This document shows, in pieces, positions 7,601 through 54,806 of a stretch of DNA of 64,000 nucleotides. Made by a program: the position numbers and the translations under genes. Below the pieces are notes generated by a model. That model saw nothing but the letters and a program-made list of their open reading frames with translations. It did no database searches and was not told the origin of the DNA. Within the stretch, counting starts at the first letter, position 1; each line of letters begins with the position of its first letter. The DNA is taken from contig JBJMGT010000015.1 of the NCBI GenBank assembly GCA_045807745.1, positions 197,948 to 261,947 on the forward strand, written 5' to 3'. The DNA comes from Pyrinomonadaceae bacterium. Its GTDB lineage: Bacteria > Acidobacteriota > Blastocatellia > Pyrinomonadales > Pyrinomonadaceae.

Positions 7601-9657
7601 CCGTGCCGCCCTCCGGCGGTGCTATCACCGTGATCAAAGGCGAGAATCAGACGCGCAGGAAACGGGCCGTCGTATAAGACGCGTCCGGCGCGCCCATCCG
7701 CGCGGCGTAGGTTGGGCAGACGCAACAGCGCGGCTACCAGTTCGGGAATCTGCACGCCGTTGATGGCCAGCCCGAAGCAGCGGTGCAGGCCGTAACCGAA
7801 GTGCAGGTAGTCCGTTTCTCGGTCGACCCGAAACTCTTTGGGTCGGGGAAACGCCTCTGGATCGAACATGGCCGAGAGTGTGCCCACGTAGACGGACGCG
7901 CCGGCCGGGATGCGCTTGGCCCGCGTCGTTCCAGCCGCAAGTTCCGTCGCCCGCCCGCAGTAGCGCGCCTGCACAGGGTGATGCGGATTAAAGCGCACCG
8001 CCTCGTAGGCGTAACGCTTGACCACCTCCACTTCGCCGGCCATGGCTGCGGCCCGCGCCCCGGCCAGCGCCTCGGGGCGGCGCAGCAATTCATCTATGGC
8101 GAGCGTGACGAACTTGGACGTGGTGTCAACCGCGCCGACGATTAGCCCGCCGAGATTGCGCCGCACCGCGTTGTCGTCGAGCCAAGGGTGCGCTTCATCC
8201 TGAAGCGCGAGCAGCCGACCCAGCACGTCGTCAGGCTGAGCGGGTGCGCCGCGCTGCGCCTTGCGCCGCGCGATCACGCCGTCCATGTGTTGCCGCAATT
8301 CCGCGCTGGCGCGCAGGGCGTCGCGGTGTACGAGCGGGTCGGCGGCCGGGTTGGCGAAAATATCGTGAAAGACATCGCGCATCCAACGTAGCATCGTCGG
8401 CTCGTCGGGCGCGGGGATGCCGAAGTACGAGCCGACCAGACGCATCGCTACGACGCGCGCGAAGCCGTTCACGACATTGATCCGGCCATACGGGCGGGCC
8501 GCCTCGGCGAGTTGGGCCGCGCTGTGCGCGACGAAGTTGCGTATCCGGTCAAGATCGTCGCGGCGCACCGCGAGCCGCAGCGCCGCTTCCTCGCGATCGT
8601 ACTGAGGCGAGCGATCCATGCCGAGGATGAAGGGGCCGTCGATGGCGTCGATGCGCGCCTCATTAACTTCGGCAATAGTAAAGTCCGTGTCGCGCGTCAG
8701 CACTTCAAGCACGTCTGGATGACGGGTTACGACCGCGCGCTTGCCGACGATGAGGATCGGGGCGACGCGGCGCAGCAATGTGAAAAGTGGTCGCAACAAG
8801 CGCGGGCTAACCAGACAGTTGAACAACTTATCCTTAAACGTGTCGCCGGGCTGATGCGCACCGGTCGCGACCAAATCAACGGCCGGGCGCGGCCGCTGGT
8901 CACGGTAGACGCGCAGGATGAACTGACCCGCCGGCCGCGCGCGCAGTTGCTCAATGTCGGCCCGCATCGGTGGCGGCAGATCATCGAGCGTCGGCATCGG
9001 GCCGCCGTACTCAGGCGGCAGTACGGCCGGCGCGGCCAAGGCCGCAAAGGCCAGATCGGCCGCCGTGAATTGATCGCCCGTTAGAAAACGTCGGCCGTCG
9101 GCCAAGCGCGCTTCCACTTGAGCAAAAATGGTATCCATAACGGCGCGCTGCTGCGGGATGGTGTCGGGCTTAAGCTCAAGGTTGCGCTGCATCGCCCAGA
9201 CTAATAACGGAAAGACAACCGGCACGGCCAAGCGCTCGAAGCGCGGCGCGCGCTCAGTCCAGACGCGAATGGTGGCCGCGCGGTTGTGCGGGAGCATATA
9301 CGCATACGCCCATGCCCGGACTGCAACGCCGAACTTATCGAAAAAGAGATCGAAGAGGGCCAAGGTGTCCGCGTGTGCGCCGGGGTCTGTGGGGAAGAGT
9401 CGCTGCTGTTCGGGGGCGCGTAGTTCGTAATAGTCTACGACCTGCCGCGCGTCGGTGAGGGCCGCATCCGCAGTGTCCAGCACCGGCACGACGCCGCTGC
9501 CGCCGTGTCTGCGCCCCGCAAGGACGTGAAAGACCGGCGCGTGACATTCTTCGTAGTACGGGATGCGGAGCCGATCCAGCAGCCAGCGCGCCATCTCGCA
9601 GTATGGACTGACGGGGATCGAGATCATGTGCGGATGGAATGAGGAGGTGATAGACAA
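7597..9657 (-). CDS. glutathione S-transferase-like / cytochrome P450 fusion protein
   Basis: The N-terminal ~230 aa has a GST thioredoxin-like start (IPVSPYCEMARWLLDRLRIPYYE) and a GST C-terminal helical region. The C-terminal ~430 aa has P450 signatures: I-helix GAVDTTS, ExxR (EAVRF), and heme-Cys loop HFGYGLHRCFG. Confidence 0.75.
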   Translation of the reverse strand: MSITSSFHPHMISIPVSPYCEMARWLLDRLRIPYYEECHAPVFHVLAGRRHGGSGVVPVLDTADAALTDARQVVDYYELRAPEQQRLFPTDPGAHADTLALFDLFFDKFGVAVRAWAYAYMLPHNRAATIRVWTERAPRFERLAVPVVFPLLVWAMQRNLELKPDTIPQQRAVMDTIFAQVEARLADGRRFLTGDQFTAADLAFAALAAPAVLPPEYGGPMPTLDDLPPPMRADIEQLRARPAGQFILRVYRDQRPRPAVDLVATGAHQPGDTFKDKLFNCLVSPRLLRPLFTLLRRVAPILIVGKRAVVTRHPDVLEVLTRDTDFTIAEVNEARIDAIDGPFILGMDRSPQYDREEAALRLAVRRDDLDRIRNFVAHSAAQLAEAARPYGRINVVNGFARVVAMRLVGSYFGIPAPDEPTMLRWMRDVFHDIFANPAADPLVHRDALRASAELRQHMDGVIARRKAQRGAPAQPDDVLGRLLALQDEAHPWLDDNAVRRNLGGLIVGAVDTTSKFVTLAIDELLRRPEALAGARAAAMAGEVEVVKRYAYEAVRFNPHHPVQARYCGRATELAAGTTRAKRIPAGASVYVGTLSAMFDPEAFPRPKEFRVDRETDYLHFGYGLHRCFGLAINGVQIPELVAALLRLPNLRRADGRAGRVLYDGPFPARLILAFDHGDSTAGGRHG

Positions 9658-11275: not shown

Positions 11276-12238
11276 TCACCCTTTGACTTCCCCGGCGTGC
11301 TTGAGAGATTCGCGCAGGAAGTTCTCGAAGATGATGCGCCCGTCGCGCGACTCGTTTGGATGTGCCCAGCGTGTGGCGCGCGTGCGGTCGTAGTCCTCGA
11401 AAGATTTTTCGAGATGGAATTGCACGGTGTAGATGAGTTGCCCGTCCGTCCGTTTGACCATCATCTGGTTGCGACAGAAGTAGGCGGTCGCGAGTAGCTT
11501 GAAGCCTTCGGGCACGCGGTCGAGTTCGAGGCCGTGGTTCTGCCAGACACGCAGGATGCGCGCCTCGGTTGTGTAATCCTGCCAGAGACCTGTCTGCGGA
11601 TCGTGTATGCCGGCGAAGATCGGGTCGTCCGGGTCGGTGATGCGGATGAAGCGATATTGATACTCGAAAGGCCGCTGCGCACGGTTCTCGTGTTGCTCAC
11701 GTTTGTCGAGCGTCTGGATGCGCGCCCCAAAGCTTAAGCCGATAAGTTGATGACCGCCGCAAATGCCGAGCACGGGCGTGCGCGTTGTGGTAATGAACTC
11801 GGCGAACTTGGCGAGCAGCGCCGGGCTGTAGAGATCAAAGTCGCTGAGCGTACCGCTCAAGACGATAGCATCGGGGCGGAAAGCGTAGGCCGCTGCGGCG
11901 ACCTCCGATAGATGAACTGTCTCCGTCACGGGCTGGCGCACGAGGCGCGAGATGTTATTGCGTATGTTGTTGAGGGCCATGCCGGCGATCTTGCGCTCGC
12001 GTTGCAGGTTAGTGTCCGTCCGCCGGCCCCATTCCGCCAATGCGACTTCAGAGAGATCGCTTCGGTCGCGCAAGAGATCGTCCACGACAAGGACGCGCGC
12101 CGTGTCAATCCGCTGCTCAATCGGTTCAAAGCGACAGTAAGAGCGCTGATTGAAAGGGAACGGTAGCGGTTCAGCTTGATCGATGGGGGTGCGCGGTGTT
12201 TGTTCGAGTTCCTGCATCGTTCTCTTAAAAGTCCACAA
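11276..12238 (-). CDS. class I glutamine amidotransferase-like protein (GATase1 / peptidase C26-like) with an N-terminal extension
   Basis: GICGGHQLIG matches the GxCxGxQ nucleophile elbow. VQFHLE matches the His-Glu triad motif. 320 aa. Confidence 0.7.
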   Translation of the reverse strand: MWTFKRTMQELEQTPRTPIDQAEPLPFPFNQRSYCRFEPIEQRIDTARVLVVDDLLRDRSDLSEVALAEWGRRTDTNLQRERKIAGMALNNIRNNISRLVRQPVTETVHLSEVAAAAYAFRPDAIVLSGTLSDFDLYSPALLAKFAEFITTTRTPVLGICGGHQLIGLSFGARIQTLDKREQHENRAQRPFEYQYRFIRITDPDDPIFAGIHDPQTGLWQDYTTEARILRVWQNHGLELDRVPEGFKLLATAYFCRNQMMVKRTDGQLIYTVQFHLEKSFEDYDRTRATRWAHPNESRDGRIIFENFLRESLKHAGEVKG

Positions 12239-12249
12239 TAGTTAGATGT

Positions 12250-12807
12250 TCACGCCCGGCGCAGCCGTTGTTTCGTATTCTGGTTGAACTGCGGCACGGC
12301 CGCGCCTGCGCCTGCCTCTTCGACCTCGCCCCGCGCCGCGCCGATCAGCGTGCGCCGCAAACGCGCACGCAATGCTGCTGTGCGCTCGCTTGCCCGGTGC
12401 TCTATGAGCAATAACATGTGCTGCCATGAAGATTCAAGCTCGTCCGCAAGCGGGGACGTTCGTGTAATGTCGTATGGGACGGCGACGGCGGCCACACCCA
12501 AGCGCGCGAAGACAGCCAGATAGCGCGCCGTCGCCAGATCGGGACACGACAGGCGCTTACGTCCGACCTTCAACTCCACGCCCAACAACGTGTGCTGCAC
12601 GGACACTTCCGTCCCGGCCTTCGCCGCCGGCAGCGCGTGCGAGCGCGTGCGCATGGGCATGATTTTTTCCCGATAAATGCGCGGCAGCCAAACGTCTGCC
12701 AACTCATCCTTGATCTGGGCCGCCAACTCGTCGGCGCTGCCCAGTCGCGCCTTTTTCTGCGCCACCGCCGGTTGCACCGCAACTGTCTGCCAAGCACACA
12801 TAAGCAC
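12250..12807 (-). CDS. hypothetical protein
   Basis: 185 aa ORF between the nuoN 3' hairpin and the GATase gene. Composition is plausible but it has no recognisable motif. Its annotated start overlaps the hairpin element. Confidence 0.3.
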   Translation of the reverse strand: MLMCAWQTVAVQPAVAQKKARLGSADELAAQIKDELADVWLPRIYREKIMPMRTRSHALPAAKAGTEVSVQHTLLGVELKVGRKRLSCPDLATARYLAVFARLGVAAVAVPYDITRTSPLADELESSWQHMLLLIEHRASERTAALRARLRRTLIGAARGEVEEAGAGAAVPQFNQNTKQRLRRA

Positions 12808-12878
12808 AGTGACAAGTGACGACTGACAAGTTGAGTGTGAATCTTAACTCGTCACTCGGCACTTGTCACTTGTCACTG
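12807..12878. repeat. heptamer-tandem hairpin element (GTGACAA type) at the 3' end of nuoN
   Basis: cagtgacaagtgacgactgacaagttgag - loop - ctcgtcactcggcacttgtcacttgtcactg. The arms are built from tandem GTGACAA-like heptamers. It overlaps the nuoN stop codon. A near-identical copy sits at 63283-63356. Confidence 0.7.
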
Positions 12879-14468
12879 TTTTCTGGCGATTGCTGCTTGG
12901 GTGCTGCGGAAGGCGTCGAGCACTTGGCCGGGGAAGAGGCCGAGGTAAAAGACGCCGAGGACGGTCAAGATGAGCACGATGGTGATGCTTGCGGGCACGC
13001 GCGGCGGCGTCCAAGCGGTCGTGCGTTCGCGGAAGAACATGACGACGACGAGGCGTAGATAGTAATAGACCGAGACGGCCGAGTTGAGCACGCCGACGAC
13101 GACAAGCGCGGTGTACTTCGCGCCGCCGGGCGCGCTCGACAGATTGAGCGCCGCGCGGAAGACCATGACCTTGCCCATGAAGCCCGCCGTCAACGGGATG
13201 CCGATCAGGCTGAGCAGAAAGAGCGTCAGCGTGAAGGCGAGCGCGGGCGCGCGGAAGCCTATGCCGTTGTAATCCTCGATCTCCGTGCGCCGGTCGCCGT
13301 TGCGCGCGATCATGGTCACAACAGCGAACGCGCCGAGGTTCATGACCGCATAGGAGAGCAGATAAAAGACGACGGCCGCGACGGCCTCACGCTGTTGCAC
13401 TTCCTCTAGAGCCGCGCCCGCCGCGACGAACCCGACGAGCGCATAACCCGCGTGCGCGATGGACGAGTAGGCCAGCATGCGCTTGACGTTTGTCTGCACG
13501 AGCGCGGCGAGGTTGCCGACAGACATTGTCAAGATCGCGAGCACATACAGCGTGTTCAGCCATACGTCGTGGATCGGCGCGGCCTGCGCGGTGCTGGCAG
13601 CGATAAAGGGAAAGCCGATGAGAAAGACGCGCATGAACGAGGCAAACCCGGCCGCCTTTGGCCCCGCGGCCATGAACGCGGTCACGGGCGTGGGCGCACC
13701 TTCATAAACATCAGGCGTCCAGACGTGAAACGGCGCGGTCGCGATCTTAAAACCGAAGCCGACGAGCAACAGCGCCGCGCCCGCGTACAGGAGCGCCGGG
13801 TAGGGCAGGCTCACGTCGCCGAGCCGCACGGCCAGCTCACGCAGGTTGGTCGTGCCCGCACCGTTGATGGTGGCCGTGCCGCCGTAGACCAGCGCGATGC
13901 CGTAGAGCAGGAAGGCGGACGAGAATGAGCCGAGGATGAAATACTTGATCGAAGATTCGTTCGAGCGCAGGTCAGTCCGGCGGAAGCCAGCCATCACGTA
14001 GGTCGAGATCGAGAGTAGCTCCAAGCCCAGAAAGATAATGACGAGGTCGCCGCCCGCCGCCATCAACATCATGCCGACGGTGGCGAACAGCAGGAGCGCA
14101 TGAAACTCGCCCGCCGGCAAACGCTCCCACTCAACCCAGATCATCGAGAGCAACACCGTCAGCGCCGCGACGACGATGAAGACGAGCGTAAACGACAGCC
14201 GCATCGGGTCGAGCACGATCATGCCGTTGTAGGCTTCGCGCAAACCCGGCGGCACACGCCACAGCCACACGCACGCGCCAGCCGCCGCCGCGAGACCCGC
14301 AAGCGACAATCCGCCCGTGAGCCAAGGGCGATCCTCGCGGCGCGTGAAAGCGTCGACGAGCATCACGAGCACGCCCGTGATGGAGACGATCAACTCCGGC
14401 AGGAGCAGCGTCAGGCTCACATCCGGGTTCGGTGCTTGCAGTGTCTGTAATGCCAACAAGTAGTTCAT
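12873..14468 (-). CDS. nuoN: NADH-quinone oxidoreductase subunit N
   Basis: 531 aa polytopic antiporter-like subunit, last of the nuo operon. The start ATG overlaps the upstream TlpA-like stop (ATGA). Confidence 0.9.
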   Translation of the reverse strand: MNYLLALQTLQAPNPDVSLTLLLPELIVSITGVLVMLVDAFTRREDRPWLTGGLSLAGLAAAAGACVWLWRVPPGLREAYNGMIVLDPMRLSFTLVFIVVAALTVLLSMIWVEWERLPAGEFHALLLFATVGMMLMAAGGDLVIIFLGLELLSISTYVMAGFRRTDLRSNESSIKYFILGSFSSAFLLYGIALVYGGTATINGAGTTNLRELAVRLGDVSLPYPALLYAGAALLLVGFGFKIATAPFHVWTPDVYEGAPTPVTAFMAAGPKAAGFASFMRVFLIGFPFIAASTAQAAPIHDVWLNTLYVLAILTMSVGNLAALVQTNVKRMLAYSSIAHAGYALVGFVAAGAALEEVQQREAVAAVVFYLLSYAVMNLGAFAVVTMIARNGDRRTEIEDYNGIGFRAPALAFTLTLFLLSLIGIPLTAGFMGKVMVFRAALNLSSAPGGAKYTALVVVGVLNSAVSVYYYLRLVVVMFFRERTTAWTPPRVPASITIVLILTVLGVFYLGLFPGQVLDAFRSTQAAIARKQ

Positions 14469-15034
14469 CAGTTGGTGTTAGTCTCGGCGCGCGCCGCCGT
14501 GCGCGCGAGCAGCGCGTCGAGCCGGGCGCGCACGTTCTTCTTATACTCAATCGGATCAGACGACATGCCCGTCTGTTTGGGCGCGGCGAACGCGCCCGTC
14601 TGGTCGAAGAAAACGATCATCGGCAACCGCAGCCGCTGGCTGAACTGCCCGAACGCCGCGTAGTCCGGATCGCGCAGCACGGGCATCGTCAAGCGATGCA
14701 GCTTTGCGTATTGCCGCACCCACGCGTCCGACGCCTGTTGTTTCGTATCGACGCTGACCCAGAGAAAACGCACGGGCTTGCGGGCGTACTCTTCTTGCAA
14801 CTCTGCGAGCGCCGTCAACTCCCACTCGCAGGGCTTACACCACGTTGCGCCGAATGAGACGAGCACCACCTGACCGCGCATCTCAGTCACGTCATAAATT
14901 TTGCCGTCCACGCCCTTCAGTTTTACGTTGAGCGCACCTGTGCGCGCGGACGCGGCTTGCGCCAAGACAACGCCTGAGCAGATCAGCATAAGCGCAACAA
15001 AGAAGAGCACATTTTTTAATCGTCTTAAGCTCAT
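14468..15034 (-). CDS. TlpA/ResA-like thiol-disulfide oxidoreductase (thioredoxin fold, signal-anchored) inserted in the nuo operon
   Basis: WCKPC CxxC active site. N-terminal hydrophobic anchor MSLRRLKNVLFFVALMLICSGVVLA. Start re-placed at ATG 15034, because the track start is GTG 15061. The stop overlaps the nuoN start. Confidence 0.7.
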   Translation of the reverse strand: MSLRRLKNVLFFVALMLICSGVVLAQAASARTGALNVKLKGVDGKIYDVTEMRGQVVLVSFGATWCKPCEWELTALAELQEEYARKPVRFLWVSVDTKQQASDAWVRQYAKLHRLTMPVLRDPDYAAFGQFSQRLRLPMIVFFDQTGAFAAPKQTGMSSDPIEYKKNVRARLDALLARTAARAETNTN

Positions 15035-15078
15035 TACTTCACAATGGGCCAAATCATGCACAACTTAACTTGCAAACT

Positions 15079-16614
15079 TCACTTGTTCTCCGCGACCGTA
15101 CCGCGACTCTGGGGCGCGACGACGCGCGTGCGCACGTCGTTGACGCTCGCCTGCGAGCGGCTCAGGAACGGGCGCGGGTAAGCGCCCATGTAGAGCATCA
15201 GGAGGAGGAGCGGCAAGAGCAAGCCAAGTTCGCGCCAACTCAGATCGGTCAGCCGCGCGTTCTTCTCGTTCGTCACGCGCCCGAACAGGACGCGCTGCAA
15301 CATCCAGAGCATATAGACCGCCGCCCAGATGACGCCCGTCGCCGCCAGCATCGTGATGATATAAGAGTGGCGCAGTATGCCAACCGTGTCCGATGTCCAA
15401 GTGCCTAGCAGGATCAGAAACTCGCCAATGAAGCCGTTGAGTAGGGGCAAGCCGACGGATGAGAGCGACGTGATCACAAAGACAGTTGCGAACCAGGGCA
15501 TCGGTTGAGCTAAGCCGCCGAACTCGGAGATCAAACGCGTGTGCCGCCGCTCGTAGATCATACCGACGATTAAAAATAGCGCGCCGGTCGAGACGCCATG
15601 ATTGAGCATCTGATAGAGCGCGCCTTGCATGCCCTGTTCCGTGAATGAGAACAGGCCCAACACGATGAAGCCCATGTGACTAACCGACGAGTAAGCGACG
15701 AGTCGCTTCACATCCGGCTGCACCATTGCGACCAACGCGCCGTAGATGATGCCGATGATGGCGAGCGTCACCATCAACCCGGAAAAATACTGCGCGGCCA
15801 CTGGGAAGAGCGTCAGGTTGAAACGCATCAGCCCGTATGTGCCCATCTTCAACAACACGCCCGCGAGGATGACAGAGCCGGCGGTCGGTGCTTCCGTGTG
15901 TGCATCCGGCAGCCACGTGTGGAAGGGAAACAGCGGCACTTTGATCGAGAAGGCGAGCGCAAAGGCGGCGAAGAGCCAGAACTCCCAATGTCCCGGATAC
16001 GGGAGGGCCGTCCCGTCTGCCAGCGCCTTGAGCATCAACGTGTAGTCAAACGTGCCGAAATGATAATAGAGCGCAATGATGCCGACGAGCATCAGCAGAC
16101 TGCCCAGCGCCGTGTAGATGAAAAATTTGACCGCCGCGTATATCCGGCGCTCGCCGCCCCAGACGCCGATCAGGAAATACATCGGCACAAGCGACGCCTC
16201 GAAGAACAGATAGAACAGCAGCAGGTCGAGCGAAACGAAGACGCCGAGCATCGCACCTTCGAGCAGCAGCAGAAACGCGTAGAAGGCTGTGTGTCGTTCT
16301 TCGACCGCATGCCACGTCGAGATGATCGAGATGGGCACGAGCAGAGTGGTCAACAGCACGAGCCACAGGCTGATGCCATCCACGCCGACGTGATAGCGCG
16401 CGCCGATCTGCCCGATCCAAGAGATGTCCTGCACGAAGCGAAACGTGCCGCTCGCACTGTCGCCTCTGAGCAGCAGGAGCGACAGCGCGAAGTTGACAAG
16501 CGAGAATACAAGCGCCAGCCAGCGCGTCTCAGCCGCGCCTCTACGCAGGAGCGCAACGACGACCGCGCCGCCGACCGGCAGCAGGATGAGTATGGTGATC
16601 AGGTAGCGCTCCAT
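15079..16614 (-). CDS. nuoM: NADH-quinone oxidoreductase subunit M
   Basis: 511 aa antiporter-like subunit with conserved nuoM/ND4 order between nuoL and nuoN. Confidence 0.9.
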   Translation of the reverse strand: MERYLITILILLPVGGAVVVALLRRGAAETRWLALVFSLVNFALSLLLLRGDSASGTFRFVQDISWIGQIGARYHVGVDGISLWLVLLTTLLVPISIISTWHAVEERHTAFYAFLLLLEGAMLGVFVSLDLLLFYLFFEASLVPMYFLIGVWGGERRIYAAVKFFIYTALGSLLMLVGIIALYYHFGTFDYTLMLKALADGTALPYPGHWEFWLFAAFALAFSIKVPLFPFHTWLPDAHTEAPTAGSVILAGVLLKMGTYGLMRFNLTLFPVAAQYFSGLMVTLAIIGIIYGALVAMVQPDVKRLVAYSSVSHMGFIVLGLFSFTEQGMQGALYQMLNHGVSTGALFLIVGMIYERRHTRLISEFGGLAQPMPWFATVFVITSLSSVGLPLLNGFIGEFLILLGTWTSDTVGILRHSYIITMLAATGVIWAAVYMLWMLQRVLFGRVTNEKNARLTDLSWRELGLLLPLLLLMLYMGAYPRPFLSRSQASVNDVRTRVVAPQSRGTVAENK

Positions 16615-16620
16615 AAACGT

Positions 16621-18963
<2,343 letters not shown>

Positions 18964-18981: not shown

Positions 18982-19284
18982 CTACAGCTTCAGCACGCTT
19001 GCCTCGTCTACGTCGAGCGATTCGCGGTTGCGGAAGACAGCGATGATGATGCCTAAGCCGACGGCCGCTTCGGCGGCGGCGACGGTCATGACGATAAAGA
19101 CGAACAGTTGCCCCGACACGTCGCGGAAAAAGCTGGAGAACGCCACGAGCGACAGGTTCACGGCGTTGAGCATCAGCTCGATGCACATGAACATGGCAAT
19201 GGCGTTGCGCTTGATGATGACACCCGTGACGCCGATGGTGAACAAGACGGCGGACAGGGCCAGATACCATGACAGCGGGATCAT
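18982..19284 (-). CDS. nuoK: NADH-quinone oxidoreductase subunit K
   Basis: 100 aa protein with three TM helices, in conserved position. Confidence 0.9.
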
Positions 19285-19985
19285 TCGTCGCCCTCCCTTT
19301 CGTGTGCTCTATCCCAGAGACCTGATTGGGCGGCCACCTCCGCCGTCGTGTGCGCAACGACGGGCGAGCCGTCGCCGACGCGGGCCGGATCAAGCGTCTG
19401 CGCCGTGAGTACCTGCGAGCCGGGCACGACCAAGGCCGTTGTGCGTAGGGCTGTGCGCCGTGCCAGCGACATCGCGCCGACGAGCGCCATCAAGATCAAG
19501 ATGGACGTGATCTCAAACGGCAGCAGGTAAGTGGTGAACAACCCAGCACCGATGGACGCAGTCAACCCGACGCTCGATGGATTGAGCGCGACGACGGGGC
19601 TGTCCGGCGCGGCCGGCGCGTTGTTGACGAAGTAGAGTATGAACGCCCCTTCGGCGAAGAGCGCGGCCGCCAGCAGCACCGCGATGGGCACGAGGTAGCT
19701 CAGCCGTACAGGCTTTCTGACCTCGTCCTCAACATTTAATAACATGATGACGAAGACGACGAGCACCATGATCGCGCCCGCGTAGACGATAATCTGCACG
19801 GCGGCGATGAACGGCGCGGCGAGCGTCAGATACAGCCCGGCGAGGGCGGCGAAGACGGCGATCAGAGAGATCGCGCAATAGAGCGGGTTGCGCTGTACGA
19901 CGAGCGCAACGGCAGCGCCAATGGCCAGCCCGGCGAGCAGGAAGAAAATTATGTATGGGGCACTTTGAGTTAACGACTCAAACAT
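19281..19985 (-). CDS. nuoJ: NADH-quinone oxidoreductase subunit J with a C-terminal extension
   Basis: 234 aa with an ND6-like TM core and a ~60 aa hydrophilic tail. It overlaps nuoK by 4 nt. Confidence 0.85.
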
Positions 19986-20021
19986 AGTTACTCGCTGCGG
20001 CCCAACTTAGACGGCGCGCAC

Positions 20022-21086
20022 TCAGGATGCGAAGAAGAACACAATCGTCGCGGTCAGGATCAAATTCAGAATCGCGACGGGCAACAGAAACTTCCAACCG
20101 AAATTCATCAACTGGTCGAAGCGGAAACGCGGCAGCGTCCCGCGCAGCCAGATGTAGAGAAACAGGAAGCAGATAACCTTGGCCAAAAAGTAGACGATGC
20201 CGAGCGCGGGGAACGTCGCCACGCCGGGGCCGTTCCAACCGCCGAAGAACATCGTCGTCGCCAGCATCGAGACAGTGAACATGTTGACGTACTCAGCCAT
20301 GAAGAAGAGCGCGAACTTCAAGGCGCTGTACTCGGTGTGGAAACCCGCGACCAACTCGGTCTCGGCCTCCGGCAGATCGAACGGCACGCGGTTCGTTTCG
20401 GCGATGGCCGAGATTAGATAGATCACAAAGCCGATAATCTGTGGGAAGACGTTCCACTTCGGGATGACATAAAACCAATAGCCTGATTGCAACTCGACAA
20501 TGTGATAAAGATCGAGCGAACTCGACAGCAGCACGACGCCGACGAGACTCAAGCCCAGCGACAGTTCATAAGAGATAAGCTGCGCCGACGCGCGCAAGCC
20601 GCCCATCAAGCTGTACTTGTTATTCGACGACCAACCCGCGAGTGCGATGCCATAGACGCCGACCGACGTGATCGCCAGCACGTACAGCAGCGCCACGTCG
20701 AAGCGCGCGACGACGAGCGGGAAGGTGATACGTGTGAAGGGGATCGTGATCTCAGGCCCGAACGGGTAGACGATGATCGGCATCAGCGCGGCCGTGATCG
20801 CCAGCATCGGCGCGAGCAGATAGATGAAGCGCGTCGACTTGTCGGGGATGATCTCTTCTTTGAAAATAAACTTCAACAGGTCAGCGAAGGGTTGCAGCAC
20901 GCCGCCCGGCCCCACGCGATTCGGGCCGACGCGCCCCTGCATGAAGCCCAGAATCCGTCGCTCGGCGAGCACCGTGTATGCCACGACCATCAACACCGCG
21001 ACGAACGCGACGTTGATGCCGATGAATTGATAAATACCCTGCGCCACCGTCGGCCCGACAAGATGATTCAGCCAGTCCATAGGCAT
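20022..21086 (-). CDS. nuoH: NADH-quinone oxidoreductase subunit H
   Basis: ND1-like polytopic protein. The ATG at 21084-21086 is used, because the track start is TTG 21089. It is followed 36 bp later by nuoJ with no nuoI in between. Confidence 0.9.
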   Translation of the reverse strand: MPMDWLNHLVGPTVAQGIYQFIGINVAFVAVLMVVAYTVLAERRILGFMQGRVGPNRVGPGGVLQPFADLLKFIFKEEIIPDKSTRFIYLLAPMLAITAALMPIIVYPFGPEITIPFTRITFPLVVARFDVALLYVLAITSVGVYGIALAGWSSNNKYSLMGGLRASAQLISYELSLGLSLVGVVLLSSSLDLYHIVELQSGYWFYVIPKWNVFPQIIGFVIYLISAIAETNRVPFDLPEAETELVAGFHTEYSALKFALFFMAEYVNMFTVSMLATTMFFGGWNGPGVATFPALGIVYFLAKVICFLFLYIWLRGTLPRFRFDQLMNFGWKFLLPVAILNLILTATIVFFFAS

Positions 21087-21090
21087 CAAA

Positions 21091-21182: not shown

Positions 21183-23474
21183 TCAGTCTCCCGCGACCGC
21201 TTCGGCGCGGCGCAATGATGTGTCAACCGTTAGCTGGTAGAGCGGCGAAATGAGCACCGTCGGCGGCTTGGGGTTGCCAGCGTAGAGCAGAGGGAACTGT
21301 GGCGTCTTGCTCGTCAGCGTGCCGGGCTTGAATAACTCGTGCCCGACCTTTGGTGTCTCCGTCTGGCGCGCGCCGGATGCTGGCAGTTGCTGTACTCGTT
21401 GGCGCACCTCGTTCAGCGCGGCAGACACATCGCGCCTGCCCGCGAGTGCGTGCTTAACCTGCACGGGCTGGCTCTCATCTTTCAGCAGCGGAAAGCGCAA
21501 GCCCGCATACGCCGGCACGTGCTCGGCGAGTTCGCGGAAGACGGCGCTTGCGGACATCTGGAAGCCAAAGTCTGCGTTGAGTGCGGCGGCGAGCGCGCTT
21601 GTGATCATCCAGTCGGGGCGCGCCTGATGGACGGGCGGAATAGACTGGCGCACACGCTGTACCTGACCCGCGTTGTTCGTATATGTGCCGTCCGTCTCGG
21701 CGAACGAGGCAGCGGGGAAGACGACATCAGCGAGCGCGGTTGTCTCCGTTTCAAATAGCTCCTGCACTACTATGAAGTCGAGTTGGCTGAGCGCCTCTTC
21801 ACGCCCGCTCAGTTGTTCAGGCAGCAAGCTGCCTGCGACATAGAGCGCGCGCAAACCTTGCCCCGCTTGATCGAGCAACTGCTGGACGCTCAAACGGTTG
21901 TTCATTAAACCGATGTCGTGCACGCCCACGCTGTTGTTGTAGAGCGGCAGCGGGTGGAATAGAAAACGACGACCGGCGCGCTCGCCCAGCGTTTGCGGCA
22001 ACTGCGCGAGCACTGTCTGAGCCGCCGCGCTCAACTCGCCGCCGAAAAGCAAGACGCAATCACCCTGCGTTTCGTCGATCAGACGGCGCACGTCTGCAAG
22101 AGCTTCCGCTTTGACGCCGAGCTTGCCGGCCGCCGTCTCATCATCTTCAGCGCCCGCGAGCGCGAGCACGGCCGCGTCCTCCGCGCCGGGGTTGATGTGG
22201 ATGAACTGCGCAGCCTGCTCTTTCAGGCGAATGGGCACGCTGTTGATGATGACGAGCCGCGCGCCGCCGTTCCTGACCGCTTGCCTGATCTGTCGGCCCG
22301 TCAACGGTTGCAACTCTTCCGGCTCGCCGCCAATCAAGATGATCGTCTTTGCGTGGCGTATCTCAGCATGTGTTGCGATGGGCGCGCCCAAGTGCGCAAA
22401 GAAGGGCGCGAGCGAGAAGGCGTCCGAAGCTGTGAAATTTTCAGTCCCGATGACTTCGCGCGCGAATTTCAACAGCGCGTAGTTCGCCTCGTTCGTCAGG
22501 CGCGGACTGCCGATGATGCCGAAGGCGTCAGCGCCGTGTTGCTCGCCGATGGCGCGCATCTTCTGGGCCGTGAAATCCAGCGCTTCGTCCCACGTCGCCG
22601 GGATCAACTTGCCGCCCTTACGATAGCGAATCAGCGGCGTCTTGATGCGCTCTTCGTGATTGATGAATGGGTGCGCGAAGCGCCCCTTGATGCACAGAAA
22701 CTCGCCGTTGATGCCGTCGACATAACGATCACGCGCGACCGCGCGCATCACTTCACCGGCGCGCGCGCCCAAAGACATCTGGCAGCCGTCCGAACAGAAT
22801 GTGCAAGTCGTGATCGTCTGCGCCAATTCCCAAGGGCGCGCTTGATGTCTGTAGGTCGCATCGAGCAGCGTCCCCGTCGGGCAGACCTCTATGCAGTTGC
22901 CGCATTGCGAGCAGTTGAGCCAACCATCGTATGTGCCGATGACCGTATGCGCGCCGCGCCCGCCCGCTTCGATGGCGTCCTCGCCCATCCACTCGTCGCA
23001 GACGCGCGTGCAGCGTTTGCACAGGATGCAACGCTGCGGATCGTTTGCGACCACGGGCGAGAGGAATTTTTCCGGCGCGTAGTTTTTCTTCTCGCGGAAA
23101 CGCTCTTCGAGGCCACCCCAATCAAAAACCATCTCCTGCAACTCGCACTCGCCGCCGCGATCACAGACCGGACAATCGAGCGGGTGATTGGCGAGCAGGA
23201 ACTCGACCATCGCGCGTTGCGCCTTCTCGATCTCTTCCGATTCGGTTGTGACGATCATGCCGTCCGTGCAAGTGATCGTGCAGGACGTTTGCAACTTGGG
23301 CATCTTCTCGATCCGCACTAGGCACATGCGACACGAGGCTTGCAGCGCGAGATCGGCGTAGTAACAGAAGGACGGGACGGCGTGGCCATTTGTGCGGCAT
23401 ACGTCGATCAGGCGCGCGCCTTTCTCGACTTCGTAAACGTTGCCGTTGATCGTGACTTTGACGAGATCAGCCAT
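21183..23474 (-). CDS. nuoG: NADH-quinone oxidoreductase subunit G (75 kDa Fe-S / molybdopterin-like)
   Basis: 763 aa. N-terminal 2Fe-2S and 4Fe-4S Cys clusters (CRMCLV, CPVCDRGGEC, CILCKRCTRVC) and a molybdopterin-oxidoreductase-like body. Confidence 0.9.
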   Translation of the reverse strand: MADLVKVTINGNVYEVEKGARLIDVCRTNGHAVPSFCYYADLALQASCRMCLVRIEKMPKLQTSCTITCTDGMIVTTESEEIEKAQRAMVEFLLANHPLDCPVCDRGGECELQEMVFDWGGLEERFREKKNYAPEKFLSPVVANDPQRCILCKRCTRVCDEWMGEDAIEAGGRGAHTVIGTYDGWLNCSQCGNCIEVCPTGTLLDATYRHQARPWELAQTITTCTFCSDGCQMSLGARAGEVMRAVARDRYVDGINGEFLCIKGRFAHPFINHEERIKTPLIRYRKGGKLIPATWDEALDFTAQKMRAIGEQHGADAFGIIGSPRLTNEANYALLKFAREVIGTENFTASDAFSLAPFFAHLGAPIATHAEIRHAKTIILIGGEPEELQPLTGRQIRQAVRNGGARLVIINSVPIRLKEQAAQFIHINPGAEDAAVLALAGAEDDETAAGKLGVKAEALADVRRLIDETQGDCVLLFGGELSAAAQTVLAQLPQTLGERAGRRFLFHPLPLYNNSVGVHDIGLMNNRLSVQQLLDQAGQGLRALYVAGSLLPEQLSGREEALSQLDFIVVQELFETETTALADVVFPAASFAETDGTYTNNAGQVQRVRQSIPPVHQARPDWMITSALAAALNADFGFQMSASAVFRELAEHVPAYAGLRFPLLKDESQPVQVKHALAGRRDVSAALNEVRQRVQQLPASGARQTETPKVGHELFKPGTLTSKTPQFPLLYAGNPKPPTVLISPLYQLTVDTSLRRAEAVAGD

Positions 23475-23485: not shown

Positions 23486-24844
23486 TTAGACCGTAGTGAG
23501 CGCGCCCTTTTCCTGTTCAGCTTGCGCGATGAGCGGGAGCAGATGGCGCTTGAAATCTTCCGGAAACTTTTTGAGCGCCGATTGAATGGGCCAAGCCGCG
23601 GCGTCGCCGAGCGGGCAGAACGATTTGCCCTCGATGTTGTCGCAGATGTCCAAGAGCAGTTGCGCGTCTTCGGGTTGGCCTTCGCCTTTGGCGATGCGCT
23701 TGAAGACTTTGACGAGCCAGTCCGTGCCTTCGCGGCAGGGCGTGCACCAGCCGCACGACTCATGTTTGTAGAACTCGGTCAGATTCTTCGTGGACTCGAA
23801 GATGTCCACCGTGTCGTCCATCACGATGAAGCCGCCCGAACCGACCATCGAGCCGGCCGCGACCAAGCCCTCGTAGTCCATCTTCACTTTTTTGCCGACG
23901 ATGTCCGCCGCCGGCATGATGTAAACGCTTGAACCGCCCGGTATGACCGCCTTCAGTTGCCGCCCGCCCGTAATCCCTTGGCAGTCCACCATGATGAACT
24001 TCTCCATGTCGTCATAACCCATCGGCAGTTCATAGACGCCGGGGCGTTTAACGTGACCGGAGACAGACCAGAGCTTTGTGCCGCCGCTCTTTTCCGTGCC
24101 GAGTTTTTGATAAGCCTCGCCGCCCAGCTTGATGATGTCGGGCACGGCCGTCAGCGTCTCGACGTTGTTGACGACGGTCGGCGCGGCGTAGAGACCAGAG
24201 ACGGCGGGGAAGGGCGGTTTCATACGCGGGTGACCGCGCATGCCTTCGAGCGAACTCAAGAGCGCCGTCTCCTCGCCACAGATGTACGCGCCCGCGCCCG
24301 TGTGCGTGTAGATTTCGCACGCGAAGCCAGTGCCTAAAATCTTTTCGCCGAGCAAGCCGGCGGCGCGGGCTTCAGCCAGCGCCTCGTCCATGATGTTGAT
24401 GAGATAGCGATACTCGCCGCGCGTGTAGATGTAATTGGTGCGCGCGCCGAGCGCGTAAGCAGCGATGAGCATGCCCTCGATCAGCATGTGCGGATCGAGT
24501 TCCATCAGATAGCGATCCTTGAATGTGCCCGGCTCGGACTCGTCCGCGTTGCAGACAACGTACTTCGGCTTCGGCGAATCCTTCGGCACAAAGCTCCACT
24601 TCATGCCGGTGGGAAAACCCGCGCCGCCGCGCCCACGCAAAGCGGACTTCTTCACTTCATTAATCACGTCGTCCGGCGACATGCCATTGAGAACTTTTTG
24701 CAACGCCTCGTAACCGCCGTTGCGCCGGTAGACGTCGAGCGAGCGCGAACGTTCGAGATGAACGCGCTTGAGTTGGAGCGGCTCGCAGCCGATAGCACCG
24801 ATAAACATAATCTTTAGCAGGGAAGAGAGCGGCTCGATGAGCAA
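23486..24844 (-). CDS. nuoF: NADH-quinone oxidoreductase subunit F (NADH/FMN-binding 51 kDa)
   Basis: [18 protein letters not shown] region. The C-terminal 4Fe-4S motif region [12 protein letters not shown] is present. Confidence 0.95.
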
Positions 24845-24865: not shown

Positions 24866-25435
24866 TTATCGAACCTTCACGCTAAACACGTACTCGTCAC
24901 GCTCGCAGGCGTCTAGTAGTTCGTCAACCTTCTCGGTCGTCAGATTCTCGTGATAGTCAAACCCAAGCTGCAACATCGGGGCTGTCCCGCACGAGCCGAG
25001 ACATTCAACTTCGGAGAGCGTGAACTTGCCGTCCGGCGTCGTCTCGCCCGGCTTGATGCCAAGCCGCTTAGCACACTGTTCAGTCACACGCCCCGCACCC
25101 ATAATCTTGCACGACAGCGTGCGACAGACCTGTAGGTGGTACTTGCCGACCGGTTGCATGTAGAGCATCGAGTAGAACGTCGCAGTCTCCCACACGTCCG
25201 TGATGCGCACGCCCAATCTATCGGCGAGATAGGCCACGCCCGGCTTGTCGAGCCAACCGCGCTCGCGTTGCACGATGAACATCAACGGCAACATCGCCGA
25301 GCGTCGGCGCTCCGCCGGATACTTGGCCAGATGCCGGTCGATCTCCGCCTCGACCGCGGCCGAGAAGTGCGCGATCTCTTCCGGCACTTTCGCCTCCTGC
25401 GGCAGAGGGTTATGCGGCGTGAATTGCTCACTCAT
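24866..25435 (-). CDS. nuoE: NADH-quinone oxidoreductase subunit E (24 kDa, 2Fe-2S)
   Basis: Thioredoxin-like 2Fe-2S subunit with the cysteine pattern C..C....C..C (CRTLSC, CLGSCG). Confidence 0.9.
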   Translation of the reverse strand: MSEQFTPHNPLPQEAKVPEEIAHFSAAVEAEIDRHLAKYPAERRRSAMLPLMFIVQRERGWLDKPGVAYLADRLGVRITDVWETATFYSMLYMQPVGKYHLQVCRTLSCKIMGAGRVTEQCAKRLGIKPGETTPDGKFTLSEVECLGSCGTAPMLQLGFDYHENLTTEKVDELLDACERDEYVFSVKVR

Positions 25436-25525: not shown

Positions 25526-26746
25526 TTATCGATCAATCTCACCCAACACGATATCAATCGAGCCAATGATGGCGACCACATCGGCGATCATCTCGCCCTC
25601 ACACATGTGGGGCAGCGCCGAGAGATTGACGAAACTGGGGCCGCGGAAATGCACGCGCGCAGGCTTCGGCCCGCCGTCGGACTTGACGTAGACGCCCAAC
25701 TCGCCCTTCGACGCCTCGATGGCGTGATAGACCTCGCCCGCCGGGACGTTGAAGCCTTCGGCGACGATCAGGAAGTGATGTATGAGCGCGTCCATGTGCG
25801 TCTTCATCGCTTCGCGGTCGGGCAGCACGACCTTGGGCGCGTCCGCTTTGACGGGGCCGGGTTTTAGTTTGCCGAGCGCTTGGCGTGAAATCTTCCACGA
25901 CTCATGCATCTCGCGCATGCGCACCATGTAACGCGACCACACATCGCCGACCGTCTCAACCGGAATCTCAAAGTCGTATTGCTCGTAACCCGAATATGGA
26001 TTGGCCCGGCGGAGGTCAACGGCGACGCCGCTCGCGCGCAAAGACGGCCCAGTCAGGCCCAGATCGATAGCGTCTTCGGCCGAGACGATCCCGATCCCTT
26101 GCGTGCGCCTCTGGAAAATCCGATTGCCGGTGAGCAAGTTGTGAAACTCTTCGAGCGCGGGCGGGAATTTATCAATGAACTGTTGGACGCGGCGATCAAA
26201 CCCGGCCGGCAAGTCCATCATCAATCCGCCGATGCGGAAATAAGACGGCGTCAGCCGCCCGCCCGATGCCGCCTCGATCAAGTTCAGAATCTTCTCGCGC
26301 TCGCGGAAGCAGTAAAAGAAAACCGTCATCGCGCCAAGGTCAAGTGCGTGTGTGCCGAGCCAGACGAGGTGCGAAGCGATGCGTTGCAACTCGCACATCA
26401 TGACGCGTATGACCTGCGCGCGTTCGGGTATCTCAAGCCCCAACAACTTCTCGACCGCCATCACGTAAGCGAGGTTGTTGCCGAGCGGGTTGAGATAGTC
26501 CATCCGGTCGGTGATGACGATGCCTTGCTGATACTTTTTGTACTCGAACAGCTTCTCCATCCCCGTGTGGAGGTAGCCGATGTCGGGCGTACACTTGACG
26601 ACCATCTCCCCGTCCAGCACCAACTCAAGCCGCAACACGCCGTGCGTCGAAGGGTGCTGCGGCCCCATCGAGATCGTCATCTGCGTATCCAGCGGACGAT
26701 CAACTACCTCGAATTGTGGCGGCAAGTTTGTGGTTGTGGCACTCAT
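25526..26746 (-). CDS. nuoD: NADH-quinone oxidoreductase subunit D (49 kDa)
   Basis: Conserved NuoD core. Start re-placed at MSATTTNLPPQFEV (ATG 26744-26746), because the 22 aa N-terminal extension in the track is a translation of the GTGCTGA hairpin. Confidence 0.9.
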   Translation of the reverse strand: MSATTTNLPPQFEVVDRPLDTQMTISMGPQHPSTHGVLRLELVLDGEMVVKCTPDIGYLHTGMEKLFEYKKYQQGIVITDRMDYLNPLGNNLAYVMAVEKLLGLEIPERAQVIRVMMCELQRIASHLVWLGTHALDLGAMTVFFYCFREREKILNLIEAASGGRLTPSYFRIGGLMMDLPAGFDRRVQQFIDKFPPALEEFHNLLTGNRIFQRRTQGIGIVSAEDAIDLGLTGPSLRASGVAVDLRRANPYSGYEQYDFEIPVETVGDVWSRYMVRMREMHESWKISRQALGKLKPGPVKADAPKVVLPDREAMKTHMDALIHHFLIVAEGFNVPAGEVYHAIEASKGELGVYVKSDGGPKPARVHFRGPSFVNLSALPHMCEGEMIADVVAIIGSIDIVLGEIDR

Positions 26747-26754
26747 CGTTAAAA

Positions 26755-26826
26755 GTGCTGAGTGCTGAGTGCTGAGTGCTGAGTCTGAGCTTTGACACTC
26801 AGCACTCAGCACTCAGCACTCAGCAC
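26755..26826. repeat. perfect heptamer-tandem hairpin (GTGCTGA)x4 - loop - (TCAGCAC)x4 between nuoC and nuoD
   Basis: gtgctgagtgctgagtgctgagtgctga gtctgagctttgacac tcagcactcagcactcagcactcagcac. A 28-bp perfect stem that directly abuts the nuoC stop (26827) and the nuoD start (26746). Confidence 0.85.
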
Positions 26827-27372
26827 TTAAGTTAAGCTGTACGGCTCGTAGCCGCGCAGCGGAAAATCTTTGCGGAGCGCATGTCCCTGCCAGTCGTCGG
26901 GCAGGAGAATGCGGCGCAAGTCTGGGTGACCATCAAAGACGATGCCCAGCAGATCGAAGGTCTCGCGTTCGTGCCAGTTGGCCGTGCGCCAGACGCCGGT
27001 GACAGTGGGCACATGCGCGTCGTCTTCGTCTAGTAAAACTTTCAGGCGCAGCCGGTGATATTTCGTTGTCGAGAACAGATGATAGTTGACGGCGAAGCGC
27101 GGCTCTTCTTCCGGGCCATTATCCGTGCCGCAAAGATCGGCGAGCAGGTTAAACTCCAAACCCGGCGTCGTCTTCAAGTATGAACAGATCGTGACGATCT
27201 GCTCGCGCGGCACGATGACTGTGATCTCGCCGAAAGCCTGCATGACATCGGCGACCCATTCGGCGTGCTCCTGTCGCAGCGACTCGATGAGCGGCAGCAG
27301 CGCCGGATATTCCAACGGCGTCCCCGTAGTCTCTTCGGCCAAACTCTGTGCGCGCGCAATATCTTGGCTCAT
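26827..27372 (-). CDS. nuoC: NADH-quinone oxidoreductase subunit C (30 kDa)
   Basis: Conserved NuoC. Start re-placed at MSQDIARAQ (ATG 27370-27372). The track's N-terminal extension translates the TTGTCCG repeat. Confidence 0.88.
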   Translation of the reverse strand: MSQDIARAQSLAEETTGTPLEYPALLPLIESLRQEHAEWVADVMQAFGEITVIVPREQIVTICSYLKTTPGLEFNLLADLCGTDNGPEEEPRFAVNYHLFSTTKYHRLRLKVLLDEDDAHVPTVTGVWRTANWHERETFDLLGIVFDGHPDLRRILLPDDWQGHALRKDFPLRGYEPYSLT

Positions 27373-27475
27373 TGTCCGTTGTCCGTTGTCCGTTGTCCGT
27401 TGCTCAAGCTCATCCGTTGCCGCTAACAACTACAAGCATAACGACGGACAACTGACCACTGACAACGGGCAGTCT
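27373..27475. repeat. heptamer-tandem imperfect hairpin (TTGTCCG/CGGACAA type) between nuoB and nuoC
   Basis: (ttgtccg)x4 at 27373-27400, paired with gacggacaactgaccactgacaacggg at ~27443-27469. On the mRNA the run AACGGACAACGGACAACGGACAACGGACA is directly 5' of the nuoC ATG. Confidence 0.65.
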
Positions 27476-28123
27476 TTACGACGACTTCCGCCGCTCGTGC
27501 CGCGAAGGGATCGTGTAGGGGCGTGAAATCGGCAGTTGCGTAGGGCTATCGGCGGCTGCCTCGTTCGTGGCGGAGACGCCGCCGGCGGGCAACGTACCGG
27601 GCGGTACGGCCTCGCGCGCCTCTTCGCGTTGCACATCATGACGGTCGCGCAAGCTTTCTTTCATCACCTTGTCTTGCAGCATCATGACCGCATGAATCAA
27701 CATTTCGGGGCGCGGCGGGCAACCCGGTATGTACACGTCCACAGGCACGACCTTATCTACGCCCTGCACGATGGCGTAGTTGTCGAACACACCGCCCGAC
27801 GTGGCGCACGCACCCATCGAGATGACCCACTTCGGCTCCGGCATCTGATCGTAGATGCGGCGCAGCACCGGAGCCATCTTGCGCGAGACGCGGCCCGAGA
27901 CGATCATCACGTCCGCTTGGCGCGGGCTGGCGCGAAAGACTTCCGAGCCGAAGCGGGCGAGATCGTTACGCGCGCTCGTCGCGTTCATCATTTCGATGGC
28001 GCAGCAGGCGAGACCGAACGTCGCCGGCCACAGAGAAGACTTGCGTGCCCAGTTGACCAACGAATCAAGCTTCGTCGTCAACACTTCCGGCAACGCTTCG
28101 GCCAGCACATTATCGAGACCCAT
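27476..28123 (-). CDS. nuoB: NADH-quinone oxidoreductase subunit B (20 kDa, N2 cluster) with a C-terminal extension
   Basis: CCAIEM and GCPPRP Fe-S ligand motifs. A ~50 aa C-terminal tail. A canonical SD GGAGG lies 7 nt upstream of the start. Confidence 0.92.
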
Positions 28124-28137: not shown

Positions 28138-28611
28138 TCAGGCGGCGCGTTTCACCGTAACCGCGCGCCCCTCTTGCACAGCCAGCGCCCGCGCTTCCGC
28201 TTCGGCTTCACGCCGCGCCCGCTCGTTCCAATCGAACAGCCCCTTCTTCCACACGTAGACATAGCCGACCAACAAGAGCGCAATGAAGATCATCATCTCG
28301 CCGAAGATGATTGCGCTGGCAGGCCCGCCCGCATGCACAAATTGTCGGAAGACGACCGCCCACGGCATCAGAAAGATCAATTCAATATCGAAGAGGATAA
28401 AGATCATCGCGATCAAGTAGAATTTGACCGAGAAGCGTTCGCGCGCCGAGCCGACCGGGTCTTTGCCGCACTCGTAGGGCATCAACTTTGTGCGCGTCGG
28501 CTTGCGTTGCCCGACGTACTGCGACAAGAGTATGTTGCCGCCCGCAAAGCCGCCAGCCACGCCAAGCATCAAAAGGATCGGCAGGTAATCCATCAAGGCA
28601 AAGTTACGCAC
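28138..28611 (-). CDS. nuoA: NADH-quinone oxidoreductase subunit A with a C-terminal Ala/Glu-rich tail
   Basis: ND3-like protein with three TM helices. First gene of the operon. A divergent intergenic region lies upstream. Confidence 0.88.
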
Positions 28612-28715: not shown

Positions 28716-29636
28716 ATGAGCGGCGCAAAAGCCTCTGGCGCAAGGAGATTGACCCTCTTCGGAGCGCTGTGTTACTGTTTTTGCCGGCGCACGCGCGAGG
28801 CGTTTTCACACGTATCCGGCGCGGGCCATCTTCAACCGACGAGTTGCTTGCCTGAGAGCGTCGTGATTACCGGATTCAACACAGACATCGAGCATAACGG
28901 CACGATCTATCACGTCCAGACCGAAGATAAGGGTCTGCGCTCGCCCATTATCCTGTCGCTCATCTACGTCGGTGGCGAGATACTCGCGAGCAAGCGTGCA
29001 CCCTATGACGATCTCGTCGCCAATGGTTTCAACGCGCAAGTGCTCGCCGAGCGCCTGCAACGCCAGCACAAACTGATCTGCGCCGCCATCAGCGCCGGCC
29101 GCATCAACGATCTCAAGCGCATGCAACAGCGCGAGACCGTACACGCGCAACCGGAGGTATTAGAGACGCAGCCTGCGTTGGCTGACGTTAAGCAAGTACC
29201 GGCCGGGACGGCTATGGATGAGCCGCCGATTGAGTTGCCCTTCAGCGCGTTGCCACACGCGGAGGCGAACGCTGGCGGCGAGTTGCCGGTTCAGCAAACT
29301 GCAGCACCGGAATTCTTGCACGTCGAAGCGGAACAGGCGCTGCACCTGAGTCTGCTGGAAGAACGGGAGTTTCGCGCGGGTGAAGTGGTAACGATCCGCG
29401 TGCGCGTCGGCACGGGGCCGGTGGAGAACCGCGTGGCCGTCGCCAACGCGGAAGTCACGGTTAAGATTCTCGGCTCGGAATTTCGCCCGCTCATCCTCCG
29501 CAGTAAGACGGATATAGACGGTGTGGCGTTGGTGCACGCGTGGCTGCCGCGTTTCACTACGGGGCGCGCTGCTATTCTGATCCGCGCCGTCTCAGGCGAC
29601 TATGCGGCCGAGTTGCGCCGCGCCATACACCACTGA
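28716..29636 (+). CDS. hypothetical protein; start uncertain
   Basis: 306 aa ORF. The N-terminal 50 aa look non-coding. A plausible start is GTG near 28866 ([24 protein letters not shown]). No recognisable motif. Confidence 0.35.
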
Positions 29637-52731: not shown

Positions 52732-54627
<1,896 letters not shown>

Positions 54628-54806
54628 AAAAAATTCCCGCGCCAAACAACGCGGGACTTCTGAGCGAATCGAAGTTGACGGACTCTTAAAAGCGCCGAGC
54701 TGTTTAGCTGTTTATTTTACGTGGCCGCAAGTCGCCTTAACTCACCACGTTTTTCATCCGCGCTTATACGCCGCGCGGTATGTCCCTGTCAAGTTTGTAT
54801 CGGGTA
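54628..54806 (-). promoter_or_regulatory. leader of the yitJ-like gene with a near-consensus sigma70 promoter and a terminator-like hairpin abutting the start codon; candidate riboswitch or attenuator
   Basis: On the minus strand: TTGACA (54787-54792), an 18-bp spacer, then TATAAG (54763-54768). The leader contains stem-loops (acgtgg...ccacgt). It ends with GAAGTCCCGCG-ttgtttgg-CGCGGGAATTTTTT immediately before the ATG. Confidence 0.45.

Follow-up and report, generated by a model that had tools for sequence, protein, structure and literature searches.

Can an operon for respiratory complex I that passes directly from nuoH to nuoJ encode a working enzyme, and, if so, where is its NuoI subunit made? 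The question is raised by a nuo operon in a stretch of 64,000 nucleotides from a Pyrinomonadaceae bacterium (Acidobacteriota; assembly GCA_045807745.1, contig JBJMGT010000015.1, positions 197,948 to 261,947 of the forward strand), which is referred to below, at its full length, as the window. Thirteen of the 14 core subunits of complex I are encoded at this locus, and NuoI, the 2x[4Fe-4S] subunit of the TYKY type, is not encoded in the 64-kb window. Very probably the locus represents a normal, functional complex I operon of the Pyrinomonadaceae type, to which NuoI is supplied from a separate chromosomal locus.

Gene Content of the Operon and the nuoH-nuoJ Junction

Genes were called from the listing of open reading frames (ORFs) of the window together with Pfam scans of their translations. 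Along the minus strand, on which the whole operon is located, the gene order is nuoA-B-C-D-E-F-G-H-J-K-L-M, a thioredoxin-like gene, and nuoN, and every encoded subunit gives a full-length match to its Pfam family. The first four genes are nuoA (28138-28611; PF00507, E 3.5e-35), nuoB (27476-28123; PF01058, E 8e-32), nuoC (26827-27429; PF00329, E 1.5e-47), and nuoD (25526-26812; PF00346, E 1e-118). The module oxidising reduced nicotinamide adenine dinucleotide (NADH) is complete at the locus and consists of nuoE (24866-25435; PF01257, E 1.6e-50), nuoF (23486-24844; PF01512 and PF10589), and nuoG (21183-23474; PF13510, PF10588, PF22117, and PF00384, plus PDB matches), with the flavin mononucleotide and iron-sulphur (Fe-S) domains recognised by Pfam. 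Matches were likewise obtained for nuoH (20022-21089; PF00146, E 4.8e-121), nuoJ (19281-19985; PF00499, E 7e-36), and nuoK (18982-19284; PF00420, E 9e-30), and for the genes of the antiporter-like subunits, nuoL (16621-18963; PF00361 and PF00662), nuoM (15079-16614; PF00361, E 6.5e-80), and nuoN (12873-14468; PF00361, E 1e-66). An earlier note on this DNA had described the 13 subunits as standing in canonical order; all 13 are indeed present, but a gene of the thioredoxin fold (14468-15061, minus strand; Pfam matches to the AhpC/TSA / Redoxin family) interrupts the series between nuoM and nuoN.

The stop codon TGA of nuoH occupies 20024-20022 and the ATG of nuoJ 19985-19983. Between them, at the site of nuoI in canonical operons, exactly 36 non-coding nucleotides (nt) are located (19986-20021, minus strand), and this direct reading of the junction bears out the gap of 36 bp given in the earlier note. 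When all 64 kb were searched in six frames for the motif CxxCxxCxxxC, two occurrences were found, both within NuoG, and none elsewhere. Since only NuoG carries this motif, no nuoI occurs within the 12.8 kb downstream of nuoN or the 35 kb upstream of nuoA, and the absence of nuoI, previously noted for the locus, extends to the entire window. The unassigned flanking ORFs were considered as candidates for a hidden nuoI and rejected, as they contain one to five cysteines and no ferredoxin motif.

Microsynteny of the Operon in Related Genomes

Relatives were collected by a scan with NuoJ of one genome per species (GTDB r232). All Nuo proteins of the window and an Escherichia coli NuoI probe were aligned by tblastn to 80 loci, and the gaps between nuoH and nuoJ were then measured. 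The probe, which was used for tblastn only, detected nuoI in every canonical locus.

The closest relatives, with NuoJ identities of 53-70%, are metagenome-assembled genomes (MAGs) of Pyrinomonadaceae (Acidobacteriota). In all of the 21 Pyrinomonadaceae-like loci (L002-L022), which stem from independent MAGs, nuoJ comes directly after nuoH, and the gap ranges from -4 to 132 nt. Direct succession of this kind was observed in about 50 of the 81 loci recovered with NuoJ. It is present in loci labelled as Terriglobia, Bryobacterales/Bryobacteraceae, Acidobacteriaceae, Candidatus Acidiferrales, Methylomirabilota (L042), and Poribacteria (L043 and L069), and the order nuoH-nuoJ-nuoK also occurs on a related Logan contig of 1.2 kb (L001) found by exact look-up of NuoJ/NuoK. 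With the same probe, nuoI was located between nuoH and nuoJ in 23 loci of Bacteroidota, Geobacterales, Gemmatimonadota, and Deferribacteres, and in these the two outer genes are 463-865 nt apart. Outside such nuoH-nuoI-nuoJ contexts, neither a motif scan nor tblastn revealed a small 2x[4Fe-4S] ORF in the flanks of the 81 related loci.

The comparison of synteny in related genomes, which the earlier note had proposed as a check, thus shows the junction to be conserved throughout the Pyrinomonadaceae-like loci and beyond. The accompanying statement that nuoI stands invariably between nuoH and nuoJ does not hold, the direct junction being the rule in this lineage. The occurrence of this junction in 21 independent relatives rules out faulty assembly and recent deletion as its origin. 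The operon without nuoI is an old character shared by the lineage and not the product of a recent deletion.

Most loci of the Terriglobia type and of the Methylomirabilota also lack nuoB (order A-C-D-E-F-G-H-J and so forth). The window retains nuoB between nuoA and nuoC and hence does not belong to this Terriglobia/NC10 subtype without nuoB and nuoI. Operons in which both genes are missing were observed in Terriglobia, Bryobacterales, Acidiferrales, and Methylomirabilota (L024, L025, L031, L037-L042, L047-L068, and others), and in several of these a second, convergent nuoM/nuoN cluster is situated 2-3 kb downstream. Three loci labelled as Acidobacteriota (L029, L035, and L076) show the order nuoA-B-C-D-E-F-H-J-K-L-M-N, i.e., without nuoG and nuoI. 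The NuoB of these loci shares 80-83% identity with that encoded beside a stand-alone nuoI on contig L138, the NuoI of which clusters with proteins named Candidatus Eisenbacteria, so that the taxonomic labels conflict. An assignment of L138 to the Acidobacteriota, considered on the basis of this identity, was dropped due to the cluster names, which say Eisenbacteria.

Selection and Functional Sites

In comparison with L002 and L007, ratios of nonsynonymous to synonymous substitution rates (dN/dS, Nei-Gojobori) of about 0.04-0.28 were obtained for nuoB, F, G, H, J, K, and M (dN about 0.05-0.33, dS about 0.8-1.9); the value for NuoD versus L002 is an alignment artefact and was ignored. This indicates strong purifying selection on the operon. 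In NuoB, all cysteines of the N2 cluster are kept (C40, C41, C106, and C135, in the contexts ACCAIE, GACA, and GCPP), and the C-terminal tail is free of cysteine. In the complex I structures of Thermus thermophilus and of mitochondria, electrons are transferred from N5 via N6a and N6b to N2, and the clusters N6a and N6b are situated in NuoI, which bridges N5 of NuoG and N2 of NuoB. Due to the intact N2 site and the intact NADH module, NuoI or an equivalent is needed. Judged from these conserved features, complex I of the source organism is almost certainly functional and dependent on NuoI from another locus.

Stand-Alone nuoI Genes in Other Lineages

When metagenomes were scanned with a NuoI alignment, 80 loci were recovered, and five of these (L128, L138, L151, L155, and L158) carry nuoI with neither nuoH nor nuoJ close by. 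Stand-alone NuoI proteins were assigned taxonomically by homologue searches and cluster names. In this way, L155 was assigned to the Planctomycetota, L158 together with the P0271 group to NC10/Methylomirabilota, and L138 together with a large group of NuoI proteins of 148 amino acids to Candidatus Eisenbacteria. Contigs of the NC10 type with a stand-alone nuoI are L158, L167, and L168, and those of the Eisenbacteria type are L138, L162, and L175. A cluster of 159 amino acids (P0275) is named 'Candidatus Sulfotelmatobacter sp.' by NCBI, and the contigs so labelled are L163-L166 and L169. This label is doubtful, since the contigs have a guanine plus cytosine content of 70% and their NuoI is nearly identical to the NC10 proteins. 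A tetranucleotide classification of unlabelled contigs with stand-alone nuoI was given up as not discriminating, because a known Planctomycetota contig was grouped with Terriglobia.

On contigs of P0275, P0273, and P0271, a recurring neighbourhood was observed (1-11400 in L163 and in L169, and 5600-10500 in L167/L168). It comprises genes encoding a MerR-type regulator, an IscS-like cysteine desulfurase, NifU, and IscA, followed by a stand-alone nuoB, a section with a 2-oxoacid:ferredoxin oxidoreductase, a peroxiredoxin gene, and nuoI. Contigs of P0275 and P0273 (L163-L166 and L169) have genes encoding IscX and then an Fe/Mn-type superoxide dismutase (SOD) after nuoI, and in case of L158 a SOD gene is likewise located directly after nuoI. 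Other stand-alone nuoI genes have HSP20/DnaK genes (L162), a ZIP transporter gene (L138 and L175), or unrelated genes (L173) as neighbours. Upstream of gltB, L167 and L168 additionally contain a second nuoB paired with a divergent NuoI-like gene.

The stand-alone NuoB proteins of L163 and L167 are 77-78% identical to NuoB of the window. On account of this identity, the split systems of these two contigs, and of L163-L169 in general, probably share their enzyme lineage with the window operon.

Origin of NuoI

The reading favoured here is that the 13 subunits encoded by the operon would form the complex together with a NuoI that is encoded separately, elsewhere in the chromosome, and that with N6a and N6b would bridge N5 of NuoG to N2 of NuoB. 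The relocation of nuoI would then be old, being common to the family, other Acidobacteriota, Methylomirabilota, and Poribacteria. We infer a stand-alone nuoI in the source organism from the conservation of the junction, the selection acting on the operon, the mechanism of the enzyme, and the precedent in sister lineages. The earlier note had left the choice between a NuoI 'encoded elsewhere or substituted'; this is the right pair of alternatives, and the evidence strongly favours the former.

Some observations weigh against this reading. No NuoI labelled as Pyrinomonadaceae or Blastocatellia appeared in the homologue searches (120 matches listed), in the genome scan probed with NuoJ, or in the metagenome scan, and all stand-alone nuoI genes that were directly observed belong to other phyla or to doubtfully labelled contigs. 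Of the searches for a NuoI of the Pyrinomonadaceae, that with a generic NuoI profile led to Bacteroidota and Gemmatimonadota, and that with a profile of the L138 and L158 proteins to NC10, Eisenbacteria, Chloroflexota, and a single 'Sulfotelmatobacter' cluster; among representatives of 50%-identity clusters, only unlabelled ones were found. Eight look-ups of the context of NuoI matches led to canonical operons or to stand-alone genes of other lineages.

An improbable alternative is that NuoI comes from a second, paralogous cluster of the nuo or hydrogenase type in the same genome, so that one NuoI pool would serve at least two complexes. Several nuo clusters occur in acidobacterial MAGs, one of which, in SbA5, has nuoB and nuoI (Table S2b, PMC6018796). 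Furthermore, the second convergent nuoM/nuoN cluster often adjoins the first in Terriglobia loci, and the extra pair of nuoB and a NuoI-like gene on L167 and L168 would fit as well. However, a second nuo cluster was seen neither in any Pyrinomonadaceae locus nor in the window, and nuoH and nuoJ are missing from every stand-alone nuoI context inspected.

It is considerably less probable still that no canonical NuoI takes part in the working enzyme, and that a non-orthologous Fe-S protein stands in its place or extra clusters of NuoG re-route the electrons. Apart from the lack of nuoI in 64 kb, it is NuoG that makes this worth considering. Its ferredoxin motifs at 22881-22913 and 22998-23030 (C149/152/155/159 and C188/191/194/198-P) are both complete, and among solved structures the protein is closest to FdsA of the formate dehydrogenase from Rhodobacter capsulatus (6tg9_A), with every NuoG of complex I ranking lower. 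Such an FdsA-like NuoG may bind one [4Fe-4S] cluster more than Nqo3 of Thermus. However, a NuoG with two motifs is also encoded in Geobacterales loci that have nuoI (L028, L034, and L071), so that its occurrence is not correlated with a missing nuoI. Moreover, the additional site, as suggested by homology to FeFe-hydrogenase and FdsA, would be oriented towards the C-terminal domain of NuoG rather than towards NuoB. Besides NuoG, no Cys-rich ORF able to replace NuoI was found in the operon: the C-terminal tail of NuoJ, about 60 amino acids in length, contains neither a cysteine nor an Fe-S motif, the tail of NuoB is Cys-free as well, and the ORF of 185 amino acids after nuoN has two cysteines. 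Finally, related lineages with the same gap keep a bona fide nuoI elsewhere. We thus consider it very unlikely that complex I of the Pyrinomonadaceae truly lacks a NuoI of the TYKY type and that a non-orthologous Fe-S protein or the additional site of NuoG closes the gap between N5 and N2.

More likely than a NuoI-free enzyme is a milder alternative, in which NuoI (and NuoB in sister lineages) moved into a regulon of Fe-S biogenesis and oxidative stress, or in which several complex I isoforms draw on one NuoI pool. If the regulon version were true, the assembly of the quinone module would depend on Fe-S supply.

An artefact or recent lesion, i.e., a mis-assembly or a deletion of nuoI that left a dead operon, can practically be disregarded in view of the same junction in 21 independently assembled relatives and on Logan contig L001, the intactness of all genes, and dN/dS values well below 1.

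Comparison with Known Complex I Systems

The location of nuoI outside the operon has been reported before, in passing, for other Acidobacteria (PMC6018796). In that study (Hausmann et al. 2018, ISME J), acidobacterial MAGs are described as carrying 'nuoACDHJKLMN' operons, one of them with nuoEFG, and nuoB and nuoI are listed mostly under 'other' scaffolds (Table S2b). These operons belong to the same phylum as the window, nuoH is directly followed by nuoJ in both, and nuoI is situated away from the operon there; the Terriglobia, Bryobacterales, and Acidiferrales loci of the present analysis show this type of junction. In contrast to the Pyrinomonadaceae type, including the window, which keeps nuoB, the operons of Hausmann et al. 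are devoid of this gene too.

With the canonical 14-gene operon (nuoA-N of E. coli, nqo1-14 of Thermus thermophilus), the window shares the subunit families, the order A-H and J-N, and the N2 cysteines of NuoB, as well as NuoE/F/G as NADH module and NuoL/M/N as antiporter-like subunits. Unlike the canonical operon, it has no nuoI, contains an additional thioredoxin-like gene between nuoM and nuoN, and encodes a NuoG in which a second ferredoxin motif is complete. Similarity to the stand-alone nuoB/nuoI systems of NC10/'Candidatus Sulfotelmatobacter' (L163-L169) is given by the above-mentioned NuoB identity and by their main operons, which lack nuoI (L042). In those contigs nuoI is associated with Fe-S assembly genes, whereas the window contains no isc genes, no SOD gene, and no nuoI.

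According to a 2025 survey (PMC12361115), complex I is complete in most Acidobacteriota species, and split gene sets are common. Like such split sets, an example of which is also found in the Planctomycetota (L155), the arrangement in question would have subunits at more than one locus within a gene set that is scored complete. Unlike split sets in general, a single subunit is displaced here from an otherwise contiguous operon of 13 genes.

Thioredoxin-Like Gene and Flanking Genes

The protein encoded by the thioredoxin-like gene is TlpA/ResA-like, with a WCKPC active-site motif and a hydrophobic N-terminus. The stop codon of the gene overlaps the ATG of nuoN by 1 nt (TGATG), and from this arrangement it looks translationally coupled to nuoN. 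Among the Pyrinomonadaceae-like loci, it is present in L002, L004, L005, L007, and L018 and absent in others (L009-L011, L014, and L020). Orthology with the peroxiredoxin encoded beside stand-alone nuoI was considered and rejected at an identity of only 25%.

Two genes directly downstream of nuoN (11276-12807, minus strand) hold their position in nine Pyrinomonadaceae loci. They encode the protein of 185 amino acids mentioned above (12250-12807), which has no Pfam match, and a class-I glutamine-amidotransferase-like protein (11276-12238), and both may be co-transcribed with the nuo operon. Divergent from nuoA, an ORF of 306 amino acids without Pfam match is located on the plus strand (28716-29636). 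Its residues from about 50 to 145 are conserved beside nuoA in Pyrinomonadaceae, Terriglobia, and Methylomirabilota loci, with identities of 30-70%, and its product is a candidate for an operon-associated regulator or accessory protein.

Further away from the operon, an ORF of 686 amino acids (7597-9657, minus strand) encodes an unusual fusion, in which glutathione S-transferase domains at the N-terminus are joined to a cytochrome P450 domain at the C-terminus, and another of 637 amino acids (52732-54645, minus strand) encodes a homocysteine S-methyltransferase domain fused to a methylenetetrahydrofolate reductase domain. Giant proteins of the secreted or surface type are encoded at 33432-38753 (plus strand; 1773 amino acids, of the pro-kumamolisin (sedolisin) type, with Big_1, Calx-beta, and DUF4214) and at 41782-49500 (minus strand; 2572 amino acids, with five lamin-tail domains and Big_2 repeats).

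Implications

The finding is real but ordinary: the locus is a lineage-typical split operon of the subtype that keeps nuoB and not nuoI, it does not represent a new enzyme type, and it leaves the known mechanism of the enzyme unchanged. Complex I will be mistaken for incomplete by pipelines that judge it by the completeness of its operon or that look for nuoI between nuoH and nuoJ, and the group miscalled in this way consists of very abundant soil bacteria. The displaced genes are exactly those of the Fe-S subunits of the quinone module, namely NuoI in the present case and both NuoB and NuoI in Terriglobia and NC10. Their location, in some lineages, beside genes for Fe-S assembly, peroxiredoxin, and SOD offers a modest lead on the regulation of complex I assembly.

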